Made by a program: the position numbers and the translations under genes. A DNA stretch of 24,660 nt from a virus, in the UHGV virus genome UHGV-2140017. One strand, 5' to 3'. The notes beneath the pieces are model-generated. The model was given only the letters and a program-made list of their open reading frames with translations, was not told the DNA's origin and did no database searches. Shown here piece after piece: positions 1-16,265 of the stretch; the first letter of the stretch is position 1, and each line of letters starts with the position of its first letter.

Positions 1-333
1 TGCCTCCCGGTAAGTCGCCGCCAGTCCACAGACGACTCGCAATGCGCAAAAAAACATATCAGACTGGCAATGCCCCTCCGCATAGGGGGATTCACCACAC
101 GGATAATTTAGGATGTAGTCATAGGCGGCGTCAATAACTGACACTCTGTCAAAGGCATCATTACGATGCCTTTTGCACAGTGCTAATCACTGGATCTAAT
201 AAGGGGCCAGAGCAAAGCGATTACCCCGGCTACCAGCACGCCATCAGCCAGGATTGACATCATTTGCTGGTGAAGTCGATAGCAACCACCAGAAACAAAA
301 GCACCCCGGCTGCGGCCCAGCGAAGTTTACCGA

Positions 334-5745: not shown

Positions 5746-6576
5746 TTACTGCGTGACAACGCCAATGAGCTTTAAAAGCTCAGGAAATTTCGATTCGAAG
5801 AAGTGCGGTTGCGTCTCACGTGGATTTGCCGGGCTGGTGATGTTTTTACCGTACAGACAACCTTTTGCCGTAACAGACCAGAATCTTTTCACGCCATTGA
5901 TACCCGTTCGGCTGCGGCGCTCCTTCTGCTCGACTATGCCGTGACCAGCCATAAGGTGATAAGCCTGGTTCGCGGTCATTCTGATGTTGTTAGCTTTAAG
6001 CAAAGCGCTAAGAGACAGCGTTGGTCTGCTGGAACCATCCTGCGCGCCAGCTGGTGCATCAATGGAATATGAAGGCATTAAATCAGGCAGCCCTGCTACC
6101 TGCTGAAGCTTCTGATATGCCCCGAGCTTTGACGAATTAGAGAGATTGAGCATTTTGGCTGCAGATTCCAGGAGGATTATGCCAGCTTGAATACGATCGG
6201 TATTGACGGTTGCAGCCCCAGCAGTGTGGAGCGCGTCAAACGTTCTGATGACCTTCAGATTAAAAACAGCGCTGATCCACATCGCGTAGGCATACACCAA
6301 CTCACGGCAAACATAGGTACCTTGCTCATTTCCGCCGCGGATGACACTTACAGGTTCTGAAATATCCGAGTTGCTATTTTGCAACTCGCCTATCAATTGC
6401 GCAGTTTGTTCGTTGCGGAGCCAGAATGCAGGCTTATGGCGGTCAAGGGAGCCGGAAGCACGATGGAGATCGTTTAGGCAATAACGACCAAGGACATCAC
6501 GACGAACAGAAATACCATCAATAACAAAAAAAGTGTGATTATTGGATGCAGCAGCACCCATGACGTGGTTAGTCAT
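5746..6576 (-). CDS. KilA-N domain protein with ~170 aa C-terminal extension
   Basis: N-terminal FFVIDGISVRRDVLGRYCLNDLHRASG...VIRGGNEQGTYVCRELVYAYAMWIS fits KilA-N. Start at ATG 6576 (MTNHV) preceded by GGAG. Confidence 0.65.
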   Translation of the reverse strand: MTNHVMGAAASNNHTFFVIDGISVRRDVLGRYCLNDLHRASGSLDRHKPAFWLRNEQTAQLIGELQNSNSDISEPVSVIRGGNEQGTYVCRELVYAYAMWISAVFNLKVIRTFDALHTAGAATVNTDRIQAGIILLESAAKMLNLSNSSKLGAYQKLQQVAGLPDLMPSYSIDAPAGAQDGSSRPTLSLSALLKANNIRMTANQAYHLMAGHGIVEQKERRSRTGINGVKRFWSVTAKGCLYGKNITSPANPRETQPHFFESKFPELLKLIGVVTQ

Positions 6577-6664
6577 AGCTTTCTCCATACATTTTTATGT
6601 GACGAAGGGCCTGCACGCCCGTTTCGTTTGCACTCTTTGACATTACTGCCATATCGGCGAACTT

Positions 6665-7063
6665 TCAACCCACAGCTGTACATGTATCCACCACTTTTTG
6701 ATAGCAGACTATGGTGATTTCTACCCTACCTCCTTCGACGATTTCACCCCATTCAATAGCCATACGCTTAACCTGGTTGTCGTCCTCCCAGATACCGGCA
6801 TAAGTCAAAGCATCAAGAAGTGCCTTGTTGAAATTATCCAGGTCACGCCGGCGATAGTCTGGCGGATAGAGAATAATTTCTACCGCTGCTGGCGCGGTAG
6901 ATGGTTTTGGTATTGCACGCAGTTGCTCAATGATCGCTGACCGTACTGCATGTTTGAATTTACGGCCGGCTGCGCTGACAAGGTGTTTACCTTTTGCGGG
7001 CCCCTTATTTGGGGACCGCCAGTAGGTGTTCACGCTGGGTGGGAATGGAAGAATAAATTTCAT
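6665..7063 (-). CDS. rusA: Crossover junction endodeoxyribonuclease RusA (Holliday junction resolvase)
   Basis: PFPPSVNTYW and RRRDLDNFNKALLDALT motifs align with E. coli RusA (PWPPSNNRYY, RRRDLDNLQKAAFDALT). ATG start overlaps the upstream stop (ATGA). Confidence 0.9.
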   Translation of the reverse strand: MKFILPFPPSVNTYWRSPNKGPAKGKHLVSAAGRKFKHAVRSAIIEQLRAIPKPSTAPAAVEIILYPPDYRRRDLDNFNKALLDALTYAGIWEDDNQVKRMAIEWGEIVEGGRVEITIVCYQKVVDTCTAVG

Positions 7064-12335: not shown

Positions 12336-12887
12336 TTATTTCTCCATACACAAAGATTTATTCGCCACGACGCCCGGAGCTGCACACTCGCGGGCGTCAC
12401 TCTTTTCTGGCTGGCAAAAGACACGGAAAAGCAATGTCAAATGTTCCTGCCATTTCGCCATCACCTGATAACTGTTCTCCTCGATCTGCTCGCGTTCTGC
12501 CTGGTCAATAACACCGTCAGCTGTAGCTTTACGGAGATACTGTGAGTGCTTTCCGATCCACTCGATAGACTCCATCAGGCGCTGGTTAATATCGGCGTTG
12601 TCCACATCCTCAATGTCTGCCAGCGGCACAAAGACCCCGTTCGAGTGGCGCGCTATCGCATTGGCGATATGATTCGTCCCACCAGCACGCTGTAGAACCA
12701 TTGCCCAGCCGAGAGGGAAAATTTGATCACCATCGGCACGTAAGCGGTTAAACAATGCGTTTTCAGTAACGCCAAGCCATTCAGCTGCTTCTGCATACCC
12801 CCCGTCCAAATCAGTGATCGTTTTTTTAATCGCAGCTACCAGCCAAGCCGGCTGCTTATCAACTTTCCATTCTGGTTCTATACCCAC
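12336..12887 (-). CDS. CII-like / CP76-YdaT-type phage regulatory protein (putative)
   Basis: 183-aa ORF 28 nt downstream of cro, the cII position. GTG start preceded by AGGGGT. Family call rests on position and size only. Confidence 0.45.
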   Translation of the reverse strand: MGIEPEWKVDKQPAWLVAAIKKTITDLDGGYAEAAEWLGVTENALFNRLRADGDQIFPLGWAMVLQRAGGTNHIANAIARHSNGVFVPLADIEDVDNADINQRLMESIEWIGKHSQYLRKATADGVIDQAEREQIEENSYQVMAKWQEHLTLLFRVFCQPEKSDARECAAPGVVANKSLCMEK

Positions 12888-12915: not shown

Positions 12916-13146
12916 TTACACCCCTGAAGCGCTATCGTTCTCATTAGCACCCTCGCCATAGAGCAACCAATGAGGATCGCAATGCAGGGCTGAAGACAAT
13001 TCAATGATGTAACGGGGCCTCTTTGTTAAACCCGCCTCGATCGCTTGTAATGACTGCTGGGTCATTCCGACCAATTCAGCCAATTGCGCTTGTGAGAGAT
13101 TCATCTCTTCACGTTTATTCTTTAATCTTTGAGAAATTGATCCCAT
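12916..13146 (-). CDS. cro: Cro-like HTH (XRE-family) repressor
   Basis: 76 aa with LSQAQLAELVGMTQQSLQAIEAG helix-turn-helix; divergent from cI across the operator region; GGAGG RBS. Confidence 0.8.
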   Translation of the reverse strand: MGSISQRLKNKREEMNLSQAQLAELVGMTQQSLQAIEAGLTKRPRYIIELSSALHCDPHWLLYGEGANENDSASGV

Positions 13147-13155
13147 AACACCTCC

Positions 13156-13214
13156 ACAGTTTTATCTGTATTTTTGAACAGATACTACTGTTTGTCAATC
13201 ACAGTTTAAACTGT
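13156..13214. promoter_or_regulatory. OR-type operator region: three ACAG-N6-CTGT operators with divergent PR (cro) and PRM (cI) promoters
   Basis: ACAGTTTTATCTGT (13156-13169), ACAGATACTACTGT (13178-13191), ACAGTTTAAACTGT (13201-13214), spaced ~22-23 bp. Minus-strand TTGACA -35 lies between sites 2 and 3. Confidence 0.7.
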
Positions 13215-13243: not shown

Positions 13244-13876
13244 ATGAGCCTTGCAGAACGCGTAAAACAAAAAAGAATCGAACTTGGTCTTACTCAAGAG
13301 CAAGCAGCTGAAAAGGCAGGAATAAGGCAACAATCATGGGCCAGCATTGAGGATGGAAAAACTAAAAAGCCTCGCAACATAGTAGGAATAAGCAAAGCAC
13401 TTAAGTGCGACCCAACATGGTTGATGAACGGTGGGCCTTTCATGGCTCTGGCCGATGTGAATTCAAGGAAAGTACCTTTGATCAGTTACGTCCAGGCTGG
13501 GGCGTTAGCAGAAAAACACCCTATTGATGCATTTGATGGTAGCTTCGAATACATCATGACTGACCTTGATATTTCTGAGTTTACTTTTGCACTAAGGATA
13601 GAAGGTGATTCAATGGAGCCTGACTTTAAAGAAGGCGACATTATCATTGTTGATCCCGAGTTAGAGCCCGTTCCGGGCGAGTTTGTTGTTGCTAAAAATG
13701 GTGAAAATGAGGCTACTTTTAAAAAGTACCGTCCTACATTTACCGATATTTCAGGCCGCCAGCAATATGAACTGGTCCCCCTTAATGACGACTACCCCAC
13801 CATTAATAGCTCTGAACGCCCGTTGAAAATTATCGGCGTAATGGTCGAACATAGAATTTACAGGCGAAAAAGGTAA
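13244..13876 (+). CDS. cI: CI-type phage repressor (HTH plus LexA-like S24 peptidase autocleavage domain)
   Basis: N-terminal HTH LTQEQAAEKAGIRQQSWASIEDGKTKKP; C-terminal S24 features (GDSMEP with catalytic Ser, downstream Lys in ATFKKY). GGAGG RBS. Confidence 0.9.
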   Translation: MSLAERVKQKRIELGLTQEQAAEKAGIRQQSWASIEDGKTKKPRNIVGISKALKCDPTWLMNGGPFMALADVNSRKVPLISYVQAGALAEKHPIDAFDGSFEYIMTDLDISEFTFALRIEGDSMEPDFKEGDIIIVDPELEPVPGEFVVAKNGENEATFKKYRPTFTDISGRQQYELVPLNDDYPTINSSERPLKIIGVMVEHRIYRRKR

Positions 13877-13891
13877 ATCCTTCCTCACATG

Positions 13892-13914
13892 AACCGGCCG
13901 GCGCCGGTTTTTTT
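13892..13914 (+). terminator. Intrinsic terminator immediately downstream of cI
   Basis: AACCGGC-CGGC-GCCGGTT hairpin (7 bp) followed by a 7-T run. Confidence 0.7.
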
Positions 13915-13976
13915 ACGTCTTTAGTTTCATAAAAAACAATAAATTACAGTTTTTTTAGTATAGTTCATCACTCAAT

Positions 13977-14019
13977 ACAGTTTTGACTGTTGACTCATTA
14001 ACAGTTTTATCTGTATTAT
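13977..14019 (+). promoter_or_regulatory. OL-type operators overlapping a PL-like promoter directed into the 14123 gene
   Basis: ACAGTTTTGACTGT (13977-13990) and ACAGTTTTATCTGT (14001-14014, identical to the first OR site), overlapping duplicated TTGACT -35 hexamers and a TATTAT -10 candidate (~14014-14019). Confidence 0.65.
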
Positions 14020-14122
14020 TAATCCATCAACAGCGAATAGGCAGGACGCCCACGAAGTAGCCGCCCGGGGCATATGAAGACCGGGATGATTCGCTAACAG
14101 ATAAACCAAATAGGAACAGATC

Positions 14123-14356
14123 ATGGCGAGCAAAGGCATTGAAAACCTTATCAAGGACGCACTAGCAAACGGCTGTCATGTAGTCCGTAAAGCGCATCGC
14201 TTCGAGGTAAGCAAGAAAGGCCAAAAATCAATCACTCTTATTATTTGTGAAGATGGCACAGCTTACCGCGGGGATATTGATCTGACGATAGCCATAGCTA
14301 TTCGCACTCAGAAAGAAATGCGCAGCATCCTCGGCCTGCCGGCCAAGGCAAGTTAA
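14123..14356 (+). CDS. Hypothetical 77-aa protein, first gene of the PL-side transcript (lambda N position, not N-like)
   Basis: ATG with AGGAA RBS ~6 nt upstream. Mildly basic, no arginine-rich motif; no family recognised. Confidence 0.5.
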   Translation: MASKGIENLIKDALANGCHVVRKAHRFEVSKKGQKSITLIICEDGTAYRGDIDLTIAIAIRTQKEMRSILGLPAKAS

Positions 14357-14532
14357 TGACCACAGGTATCTTCGGGAGGGGTTGCGGGGCTGGATTGACC
14401 ACCAGCAACAGAAACTCACCCGACACACAGCAGCCGTTTAGCCCACGGCGTCGGGGGTCCAGTATTCCTGGATTAATACTGTAGGGGTTGAGCCGGTTGG
14501 TCGCCGGCGCCCCGCCCGAAGATACTTGATGC

Positions 14533-14558
14533 AACAAAAAAGCGCCCCATAGGACGCT
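14533..14558 (-). terminator. Intrinsic terminator (minus strand) downstream of the 156-aa gene
   Basis: Minus-strand hairpin AAGCGTCC-TATG-GGGCGCTT (8 bp with one G-U) followed by TTTTTTGTTG, ~30 nt after the stop at 14590. Confidence 0.55.
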
Positions 14559-14589
14559 TCGCTCTTTAACAATCTGGATATCTTTAACA

Positions 14590-15060
14590 TCAGTAACTGG
14601 CTGGAGGTGCAGAGTCTGTATCAAACACATTCTGACAGGAGGGACATCTGCTTTGATTGAAACTCGCATACATACTCACCTGTTGAGGTTGCAGTATGGA
14701 TACTTTATTTGCAGCAAAACAATGTGGACAAAGATGCACGGTTATTTCCGTATCACCCACAATCTGCTTCTTGGAATACACCAGAGAACCAGAATCAAAC
14801 TTATTCAGAACATAGCCTTCGGTTTGGCTTTTGAAGTCTTCAAACTCTGCAATTTTTGCTTTGAGAAGCATTACCTTCTCGTCACGAGAACGGATGGCAT
14901 CACCAAGAGAGAAACATTCAGCTTGGAGGGTGATTAGTTTGTTCTGAAGCTCAATAGTTGCAGCTTTAACTTCAGCATCAGTTTTCGCGTCATTAATGAC
15001 TTTTGCAAGACCCGCAGTCTCCTTTATCGCGGTCATAGCCGCGGATAGTTCAGCTATCAC
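14590..15060 (-). CDS. Hypothetical coiled-coil protein with C-terminal zinc-ribbon, convergent with the PL transcript
   Basis: N-terminal ~90 aa amphipathic coiled coil (KLITLQAECFSLGDAIRSRDEKVMLLKAKIAEFEDFK); C-terminal CPHC-x28-CPSC pairs. Own terminator. Start ambiguous (GTG at 15060 or ATG at 15036). Confidence 0.55.
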   Translation of the reverse strand: MIAELSAAMTAIKETAGLAKVINDAKTDAEVKAATIELQNKLITLQAECFSLGDAIRSRDEKVMLLKAKIAEFEDFKSQTEGYVLNKFDSGSLVYSKKQIVGDTEITVHLCPHCFAANKVSILQPQQVSMYASFNQSRCPSCQNVFDTDSAPPASY

Positions 15061-15893
15061 TATGAATACTCATCATGTTGTTGGGGATATCCAGATTAAC
15101 CGAATCCTTGTTGTTGGGGAATAACCAGGATCCACCTCGCCTGATGTGGGTAAAAGCAGGCACACAACATGAAAGCGCATTCCATCTTCCATCGGTCGTG
15201 GGGACTGGTTTGTAACTGAAGGAGTGCGCTTCCAGTTGTGAACGGCAATATTCGCAACCGTTGTATGGCACATGCAGCGTTAGCGGCCTGAGAGTTCCCT
15301 TGATCCATGCGCTCTCAGAACAACCGGAAATGTGCAAGCTAAGTGTTTCAGGCACGACGTGCGCCCCACCAGCGCGGCGAAAAGGTGTGACGCCCGGGAA
15401 GAGTCCGGGACACAACGATGAGGGCATTGACGAGCAAGGCACAGAGTCTGGTTCGATTCCAGACGCCAGGATAGTTCTATATCTGGTGATGGGCAGGGAA
15501 AAGGTCCGTTCGATTCGGGCACCGGCAGTGCTCTCTTCGTTGTGGTAATTGCGGCTATGCGCACGTGGCGAGCCAACCCGTTCATGGAATGCGTTTCCGG
15601 GCAGTGTACGTCGCCGGTTATGGCTTAACCCGGCAGGTGGAGGCACCACCGCCACAACCTAGTTAACTGTGCTGTGTGTAGTCTTGGCGGTTATCCGTTT
15701 TCCACTATCCAAAGGAGGAAGAGGATAACGTTCTGATGGATAACCGCCCTTTTTACACAATACACAAGAGCATCACCGGGCGACGGGCTCATTACCCAAT
15801 CCACCCGGGCGGCGTCCTAACCGCAGGTGCTCTTCTGTGTTGTGTACGGAGAAATTCCCGGCGGTGGCAGCCGCCTTTCGAGAGGGTAAAACC
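15061..15893. other. ORF-poor, GC-rich, hairpin- and repeat-dense segment (candidate structured ncRNA or long regulatory leader)
   Basis: Only overlapping R/P/S-rich ORFs in all six frames. Contains a tRNA T-arm-like element with a GGTTCGATTCC loop (~15447-15463), an 11-bp perfect inverted repeat followed by T5, several GC hairpins and imperfect direct repeats. Coordinates +/-2 nt. Confidence 0.3.
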
Positions 15894-16265
15894 ATGAGTA
15901 ATGATCGCATGACAGTCGTGCCTGATTTCCTGGGCGAACTGGACGCCGGCGTATTCATGAACAAGATTGCGGCGGCTCTTAATACCACCGCACTCGGCGT
16001 TCTGAATAACGGCAACAAAGGCAAGGTAGTCCTCACCTTTGATTTTGAGCGTATGGGCAACTCTGTTGAAGAGAAGCGCGTCAAGATTAAGCACAAGCTG
16101 AACTACAGCACCCCTACTCCCCGCGGCAAAGCGTCGGAAGAGGACACCACCGAAACACCAATGTGGGTTAACAAAGGCGGCAAGCTCACTATCCTGCAGG
16201 AGGATCAGGGGCAACTCTTCGGTATCACCGGCACGGTGGACGGAAAGCTTAAAGCGGCTCAGTGA
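15894..16265 (+). CDS. Hypothetical protein (123 aa), first gene of the plus-strand operon
   Basis: ATG (MSNDRMTVVPD...) with GAGAGGG RBS; the ORF-track start at 15837 is GTG. Sits immediately upstream of YfdQ/YfdR-like genes. Confidence 0.55.
   Translation: MSNDRMTVVPDFLGELDAGVFMNKIAAALNTTALGVLNNGNKGKVVLTFDFERMGNSVEEKRVKIKHKLNYSTPTPRGKASEEDTTETPMWVNKGGKLTILQEDQGQLFGITGTVDGKLKAAQ

Follow-up and report, generated by a model that had tools for sequence, protein, structure and literature searches.

What is the role of two convergent genes that abut the repressor of a lambdoid prophage, and do they belong together? The question is raised by virus genome UHGV-2140017, from which a stretch of 24,660 nucleotides (nt), here called the window, was analysed. 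The prophage is lambdoid and of the YfdP/YfdQ (CPS-53/KpLE1-like) type; the window corresponds to its early region, and the named sources of the window's protein homologues are mostly Klebsiella and Citrobacter. An open reading frame (ORF) of 77 amino acids (aa) is the first gene behind the PL-like promoter, and a 156-aa ORF on the opposite strand converges on it (Table 1). We are highly confident that the 156-aa gene belongs to the Rip1 family, whose characterised members are prophage-borne antiphage proteins. That it also works like Rip1 and that the 77-aa gene is a module independent of it appears, taken jointly and by analogy with the characterised proteins, probable.

Membership of the 156-aa protein in the Rip1 family

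The AlphaFold model of the 156-aa protein, computed with 43 homologues (predicted local distance difference test, pLDDT, 89.9), consists of two helices (residues 3-24 and 28-79) and a six-stranded beta domain, which bears the motifs C111-P-H-C114 and C139-P-S-C142. When this model was compared with the structures in the PDB using Foldseek, only two chains matched at E ≤ 0.001, 9oox_L (E = 4.6e-7) and 9oox_M (E = 9.6e-7), both with a probability of 1.0 and a template modeling (TM) score of 0.74 on the target; all other matches had E > 0.2. According to its PDB title, 9oox is Rip1 of Escherichia phage HK446 in complex with the small terminase of phage T6. Searches with sequences led to the same entry. 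The profile of the 43-member family matched the 9oox chain “ring interacting pore 1 (Rip1)” among the PDB sequences at E = 5.2e-18, with a full-length alignment (query residues 5-150 on residues 15-159 of the 164-residue chain), and the single 156-aa sequence matched it at E = 2.7e-9.

Two further phage proteins connect the window to Rip1. HkaP of phage HK620 (32% identity) and orf25 of Pseudomonas phage D3112 (full-length, 28% identity, E = 9e-19) were picked up with the 156-aa protein by tblastn, and both also match the Rip1 chain of 9oox (E = 2.4e-10 for HkaP and 2.1e-20 for D3112 orf25). An alignment of the window protein with HK446 Rip1, HkaP, D3112 orf25 and four Enterobacterales homologues revealed the invariant residues Q46, L66, Y83, C111, C114, I122, L123 and Q124 (the ILQ motif), C139 and C142. 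Among phage protein families, the 156-aa protein matches phrog_1244 (E = 5.4e-50), and 199 homologues were found in a collection of 5.8 billion proteins. For the best 120 of these, essentially all source names read “hypothetical protein”, and none contained a Pfam domain. The homologues share 20 invariant columns, the four cysteines among them, and their N termini, with a conserved MIAELSAAM, back the GTG start codon of the 156-aa ORF. Within this family, the window protein falls into a distinct Enterobacterales subgroup, the members of which are 53-93% identical to each other.

The initial annotation, made from the letters of the sequence, had described an N-terminal coiled coil and a C-terminal CPHC...CPSC ribbon in this protein, and the coiled-coil-like part and the motif are indeed present in both the sequence and the AlphaFold model. 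Its statement that neither of the two proteins matches a known family stands for Pfam, NCBIfam and PADLOC, in which libraries we found nothing significant for the 156-aa protein; it fails for the 156-aa protein in the comparison with solved structures, where 9oox Rip1 is matched. Weak hits to TerY_C, DUF2719 and zinc-finger families were below threshold and were rejected as reflecting the four-cysteine motif only. The expectation that an opposite-strand, self-terminated gene at the side of the repressor would be an antiphage gene of the prophage is borne out by the homology to Rip1. The function suspected there can, however, no longer be called undescribed: Rip1 was characterised in 2026 and its structure has been solved (9oox), and the 156-aa gene, being a relative of Rip1, thus represents an already known kind of defence gene.

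The characterisation of Rip1 was reported by Patel et al. (2026, Nature 651:1060), as cited in a review (PMC13434031). In Pseudomonas aeruginosa, Rip1 is a prophage protein encoded between the genes for the small and the large terminase; it is non-toxic by itself and was reported to be sufficient for defence alone, its antiphage activity having been demonstrated by expression and deletion analyses (PMC13434031). Infected Rip1 lysogens round up, and mutations that allow phages to escape are located in the portal (Pseudomonas phages) or in the small terminase (E. coli phages) (PMC13434031). An 11-mer terminase ring is encircled by 12 Rip1 protomers; the C-terminal half of the protein touches the ring, whereas the N-terminal part consists of amphipathic helices, and the complex constitutes a pore, through which dye was released from liposomes (PMC13434031).

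Because the 156-aa protein is homologous to these characterised Rip1 proteins, we propose a corresponding mechanism for it, in which lysogen expression, triggers and pore formation are transferred from them. The lysogen would make the protein from a small unit of its own, with the conserved upstream module and a separate terminator, antisense to the repressed PL operon, and the protein would be harmless when alone. Once an invading phage enters late expression, the C-terminal beta domain with its four cysteines may bind ring-shaped oligomers of the small terminase or the portal. About 12 protomers would then assemble round the ring and their N-terminal helices would make a membrane pore, so that the cell would be permeabilised before the invader finishes its assembly.

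Several observations weigh against this proposal. The identity to the solved HK446 Rip1 is 24% and that to the Pseudomonas-type protein 28%; judged from such sequence distances, the trigger specificity, and even the activity, could differ. The defence-system library PADLOC contained no match to the 156-aa protein at E ≤ 0.1. In a simple hydrophobic-moment scan the N-terminal helices were modestly amphipathic (maximum 0.34), and the N terminus is rich in Gly, Ala and Ser. No sigma-70 consensus with at least 8 of 12 matching positions was detected within 200 nt upstream of the gene, and its expression in the lysogen is for this reason presumed. Finally, the mechanistic details of Rip1 used here are those given in the review (PMC13434031) together with the PDB title of 9oox.

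The 77-aa gene as a separate early module

The 77-aa ORF is preceded by AGGA about 7 nt upstream of its ATG, and its product belongs to a conserved phage family (phrog_12911, E = 7.8e-37). A word-indexed search returned 51 clusters of this family. In an exhaustive profile search, 234 representatives reached E ≤ 1e-3; most of them consist of this domain alone and are 70-80 aa long. The protein had no Pfam match at E ≤ 0.1, the N-antiterminator families included, and none in NCBIfam or PADLOC. Its AlphaFold model (pLDDT 83) shows a helix followed by four strands and a second helix. A HicA toxin and a frataxin/CyaY protein were considered as candidates and rejected, as there was no significant match and the resemblance in fold is generic only.

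Homologues were also found outside lambdoid prophages. In the virulent T4-like Klebsiella phage KP27, one is located between nrdD and nrdG, behind an early-type promoter. The family is present on 533 plasmids as well, 502 of which are predicted to be conjugative. We could not confirm that these homologues belong to the plasmid leading region; the copy on an IncHI1B plasmid neighbours yfaE in a stretch of hypothetical genes. The sole functional hint for the family comes from P0177, a metagenomic representative of 294 aa, in which the 77-aa domain (residues 45-118) is joined in frame with an Acb1 2H phosphodiesterase (PF23474, E = 3.9e-37). This fusion was found once.

Could the two convergent genes nevertheless form one system, in which the PL-driven 77-aa protein acts as antidote or regulator of the Rip1-like protein, for instance by keeping the phage's own terminase or portal from triggering it at induction, and as an anti-Rip1 factor in virulent phages? 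We consider this improbable, even though the genes are adjacent and convergent and at most of the listed places with an identical 77-aa protein the 156-aa gene is present next to it (L009, L011 with 14 similar places, and L012). A prophage carrying Rip1 presumably has to avoid its self-activation, the 77-aa domain is encoded by virulent T4-like Klebsiella phages, HK446 Rip1 is triggered by the small terminase of a T-even phage (title of 9oox), and the enzyme to which the domain is once fused, Acb1, is a known anti-defence enzyme. The co-occurrence is, however, largely clonal, the contigs carrying identical proteins. Moreover, the 77-aa gene exists without a Rip1-like gene in three contigs (L010, L013 and L014), in KP27 and on the 533 plasmids; conversely, PhiR29_2, the Edwardsiella prophage, HK620, HK630 and D3112 possess a Rip1-like gene without the 77-aa gene. 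The reported sufficiency and non-toxicity of Rip1 alone also argue against a second component.

Since each gene is found without the other, the two are not a functional pair. The 77-aa gene is a separate, PL-driven early module that stands outside the Rip1 system. With PL as its promoter, it should be silent in the lysogen and therefore does not qualify as a lysogen-expressed exclusion gene.

Our best guess, held with low confidence, is that the 77-aa protein serves as an early host-directed or counter-defence accessory factor. The rival roles, N-like antitermination (see below) and that of a dedicated Rip1 antidote, are less likely. It is rather doubtful whether one may go further and see in it the first noticed member of an early counter-defence or host-takeover domain shared by mobile elements, a domain found as first PL gene in temperate Enterobacterales phages and within an early-promoter cluster in virulent T4-like Klebsiella phages. 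In this prophage, the protein might then additionally act as an antidote that keeps the phage's own packaging proteins from setting off the Rip1-like pore at induction.

Cargo slot and RNA elements of the early-left leader

Rip1-like genes are found at different places in phage genomes. D3112 orf25 is located between the small and the large terminase genes on the opposite strand, which is the position given for the Pseudomonas Rip1 in the review. In HK620 and HK630, hkaP is an opposite-strand gene within the PL operon that converges on an early gene. The HK620 record annotates hkaP as “putative superinfection exclusion protein”; in the literature searched we found no experimental work on HkaP, and a paper on an HK620 biosensor contained no hkaP expression data. 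Repressor-proximal Rip1-like genes on the opposite strand occur in PhiR29_2 (E. coli) and in Edwardsiella and Citrobacter prophages, and a Serratia Rip1-like gene, again on the opposite strand, is situated beside the tail sheath gene.

The location between terminase subunit genes in Mu-like Pseudomonas phages could also be taken to mean that a 156-aa protein with the Rip1 fold serves the phage's own cycle and not defence, as an accessory for packaging, assembly or lysis timing on the terminase or portal ring. The known ligands of the Rip1 family are packaging proteins (PMC13434031), and the missing lysogen promoter at the window gene would be compatible with such a role. It appears quite unlikely, however, as Rip1-like genes always run opposite to the flanking lytic operons, and do so at no fewer than three different genomic positions. 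The gene is furthermore sporadic among near-identical prophages, which fits accessory cargo and not a core function, and the antiphage activity reported from expression and deletion analyses (PMC13434031) speaks for defence.

Defence cargo, as we prefer to read the Rip1-like gene, corresponds with the variability of the locus among related prophages, a point that the initial annotation had suggested checking. In prophages with an identical 77-aa gene, the slot between this gene and yfdP exists in four states: it is occupied by the Rip1-like gene, by another gene of 157 aa (L008) or by a short remnant (L010), or it is empty (L013). The slot behaves as an accessory cargo hotspot in the early-left leader of this YfdP/YfdQ-type Klebsiella prophage. 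The 157-aa gene of L008 (positions 6540-7013, minus strand) is equipped with the same terminator and upstream module as the Rip1-like gene. Its product contains hydrophobic stretches that, by eye, suggest about two membrane spans, and it had no Pfam or PADLOC match; it is possibly another exclusion gene.

The terminator that had been predicted for the 156-aa gene is present (Table 1). The same terminator sequence stands behind the Rip1-like gene of PhiR29_2 and, in L008, behind the other, likewise reversed cargo gene. Immediately next to it, the window contains a single exact match to the boxA-like sequence GCTCTTTAACAA, which shares 12 of 13 bases with what we take to be the consensus of the rrn-type boxA. 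This sequence is conserved in L008 and PhiR29_2 and missing where the slot is empty, i.e., it moves with the reversed cargo cassette. On the other side of the gene, the upstream module is kept before the Rip1-like genes of the Klebsiella window, E. coli PhiR29_2, Edwardsiella and Citrobacter, partly also in Serratia, and it precedes the different cargo gene in L008 as well. We presume that this module is the promoter and regulatory region of the Rip1-like gene.

Between positions 15061 and 15836 we detected no further promoter from which yfdP could be transcribed; transcripts from PL therefore probably have to cross the Rip1-like gene in antisense direction. This passage might require antitermination and might silence rip1 at induction. 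That the 77-aa protein itself is an analogue of lambda N, an antiterminator carrying PL transcription past the convergent terminator to yfdP and beyond, is highly improbable: the first place after PL is the lambdoid position of N, a boxA-like sequence follows in the same transcript and yfdP would have to be reached from PL, but the protein lacks a Pfam match, its N terminus MASKGIENLIKDA does not, by eye, resemble an arginine-rich RNA-binding motif, the gene is missing from the same-operon siblings PhiR29_2 (which keeps the Rip1-like gene and the terminator) and ST64B, and members of the family are carried by T4-like phages and by plasmids, for which one would not expect N-type antitermination. 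The absence of N-family matches and of an arginine-rich N terminus agrees with the initial view of the protein as not N-like.

Two structured RNA elements were identified in the early-left leader. The first is the noncoding block right after the 77-aa gene, which folds into a closed multi-hairpin structure with a minimum free energy of -88.1 kcal/mol (z = -3.49), a stability equalled in none of 200 shuffled sequences. It is conserved in all four related loci compared, whatever the cargo. In ST64B, which lacks the 77-aa gene at this place, the block is found at 78.7% identity directly after PL, between the repressor and the yfdP homologue. A few compensatory changes (GCCGG/CCGGC, ACCGA/TCGGT and GCTGG/CCAGC) are present, with about three sequence variants, which are too few for covariation statistics. 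The block is a candidate leader, regulatory or antitermination RNA. An ORF of 42 aa at 14356-14484 was rejected as a gene, as its ATG reads ATT in three related loci.

The second element, located between the Rip1-like gene and yfdP, is the core of a 313-nt indel block that is missing from L013. A helix of about 20 bp closes the structure, which further comprises two hairpins carrying the T-loop sequence UUCGAUU of transfer RNAs (tRNAs) and one variable hairpin. Among 36 sequences, 13 of the 36 base pairs showed compensatory changes, and 97.9% of the alignment cells were paired, compared to 35-52% when the partners were slid. The covariation score of 0.288 (vs 0.04-0.08) was reached in 0 of 500 shuffles. 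Rfam 15, searched over positions 13850-16000 at the gathering threshold and at E ≤ 10, returned nothing, and ARAGORN predicted neither a tRNA nor a transfer-messenger RNA. This RNA may mimic a tRNA, or it may serve as a processing site or as a decoy.

The T-arm RNA, as we call this second element, was detected in at least 116 viral contigs and 79 E. coli genomes, in all 79 of which it is unannotated by RefSeq. In 71 of the 116 viral contigs it is located 250-750 nt upstream of a yfdP homologue on the same strand, whereas a Rip1-like gene is present in just 3 of them. Thus, it belongs to the early-left leader and not to the defence gene. According to a covariance model, full copies exist only in Enterobacterales. 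Weak, shortened matches of 21-22 bits were obtained in ST64B (L134, 2718-2802, plus strand) and PhiR29_2 (L003, 4017-4124, minus strand), which suggests that these two keep the long closing stem only, without the T-arm domain.

Some candidates linked to this element were discarded. Genome-wide matches to the 18-mer of the RNA outside Enterobacterales were treated as unrelated. The six loci checked in Escherichia, Enterobacter and Lelliottia lie within a conserved coding region, which we read as hisA, and none of the other loci fit the covariance model. For SPN9TCW_003, a reversed gene beside the same T-arm RNA element, homology to Rip1 was rejected (hhalign probability 0.6%). A 199-201-aa ORF that gene callers reported in related contigs (15050-15655 in the window, minus strand) is almost certainly spurious: it runs antisense to the covarying RNA, part of it is removed in L013 by the 313-nt indel, the length of which is not a multiple of 3, and it has no family matches.

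All features that the initial annotation had listed for the locus, i.e., the repressor with its terminator, the operators, PL and the two convergent ORFs, were recovered at the positions given there (Table 1). The operator palindrome ACAG-N6-CTGT occurs six times in the whole window compared to 0.26 expected occurrences, and six were reached in 0 of 100 shuffles. Five of the matches are located at the immunity region (three at OR and two at OL), and the sixth lies elsewhere in the window. At the very edge of the window (1-129, minus strand), a sequence clipped by that edge matched the gammaproteobacterial small RNA STnc100 in Rfam (53.6 bits vs a gathering threshold of 47).

Table 1. Features of the immunity region and the early-left leader in the window
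Feature	Position	Strand	Details
cII-like gene	12336-12887	-	ORF map
cro	12916-13146	-	ORF map
OR operators	13156-13214		three ACAG-N6-CTGT palindromes (14 bp)
cI-type repressor, S24-peptidase/helix-turn-helix	13244-13876	+	Pfam Peptidase_S24 (6.6e-22), HTH_3 (1e-9)
Intrinsic terminator of the cI transcript	13891-13910	+	8-bp GC-rich stem, then T run; just past the cI stop (13876)
OL operators	13977-13990, 14001-14014		two ACAG-N6-CTGT palindromes; overlap the PL-like promoter
PL-like promoter	13990-14019	+	TTGACT-18-TATTAT, 10/12 consensus matches
77-aa ORF	14123-14356	+	phrog_12911; first PL gene
Folded noncoding block	14363-14530	+	~170 nt, right after the 77-aa stop; in the PL transcript
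Intrinsic terminator of the Rip1-like gene	14560-14539	-	9-bp stem, 4-nt loop, T run; 29 nt past the stop codon
boxA-like sequence GCTCTTTAACAA	14561-14572	+	PL-transcript strand; just 3' of the terminator hairpin
156-aa Rip1-family ORF	14590-15060	-	GTG start; converges on the 77-aa ORF
Upstream module	15061-15169	-	~110 nt; two CCCCAACAAC repeats and a -10-like hexamer
T-arm RNA, structured, unannotated	15410-15545	+	core of the 313-nt indel block 15234-15546

Significance and comparison with known systems

With these results, Rip1 defence would come to include a large subgroup from Klebsiella and other Enterobacterales that has lacked annotation. The cargo slot of this subgroup adjoins the repressor and comes with a terminator and an upstream module that are portable. 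In phage therapy against Klebsiella, lysogen resistance that maps to terminase or portal could be due to resident Rip1-like genes. The novelty that remains lies in the 77-aa early domain, the candidate structured PL leader RNA and the possible tRNA-mimic RNA.

Compared to Rip1 of HK446 and Pseudomonas, the 156-aa protein shows full-length homology in sequence and fold, at a similar length (156 aa vs 164 aa of the solved chain), and shares the long N-terminal helices and the C-terminal beta domain with CxxC...CxxC and ILQ. In both cases a single prophage-borne gene runs antisense to its neighbours. The window gene differs in its location beside the repressor of a YfdP-type prophage and not between terminase genes, and its product, known here from sequence and model, is 24-28% identical and belongs to a separate Enterobacterales subgroup. 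HkaP of HK620 and HK630 likewise belongs to the Rip1 family, and its gene has the corresponding opposite-strand position within the PL operon, converging on an early gene. However, hkaP lies downstream of an N gene and hkaQ, whereas the window has no N gene and the early gene on the converging side is an unrelated one, the 77-aa ORF.

SieB and RexAB of lambda and BstA of Salmonella phages are lysogen-expressed accessory genes near immunity regions that protect the lysogen by aborting infection. They are positional and conceptual analogues of the 156-aa gene for which no relationship in sequence was found, as neither window protein has a Pfam family above threshold or a PADLOC match, and they differ from Rip1 in the sensing logic, which in Rip1 relies on late phage proteins that form oligomeric rings. 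Avs1-4 and TerI also sense packaging proteins conserved among tailed phages (bioRxiv 10.64898/2026.04.30.721860). The Avs proteins, however, are large STAND (signal transduction ATPases with numerous domains) nucleoside triphosphatases with separate effector domains, whereas Rip1-type proteins of about 160 aa combine the sensor and the pore effector in one protein.

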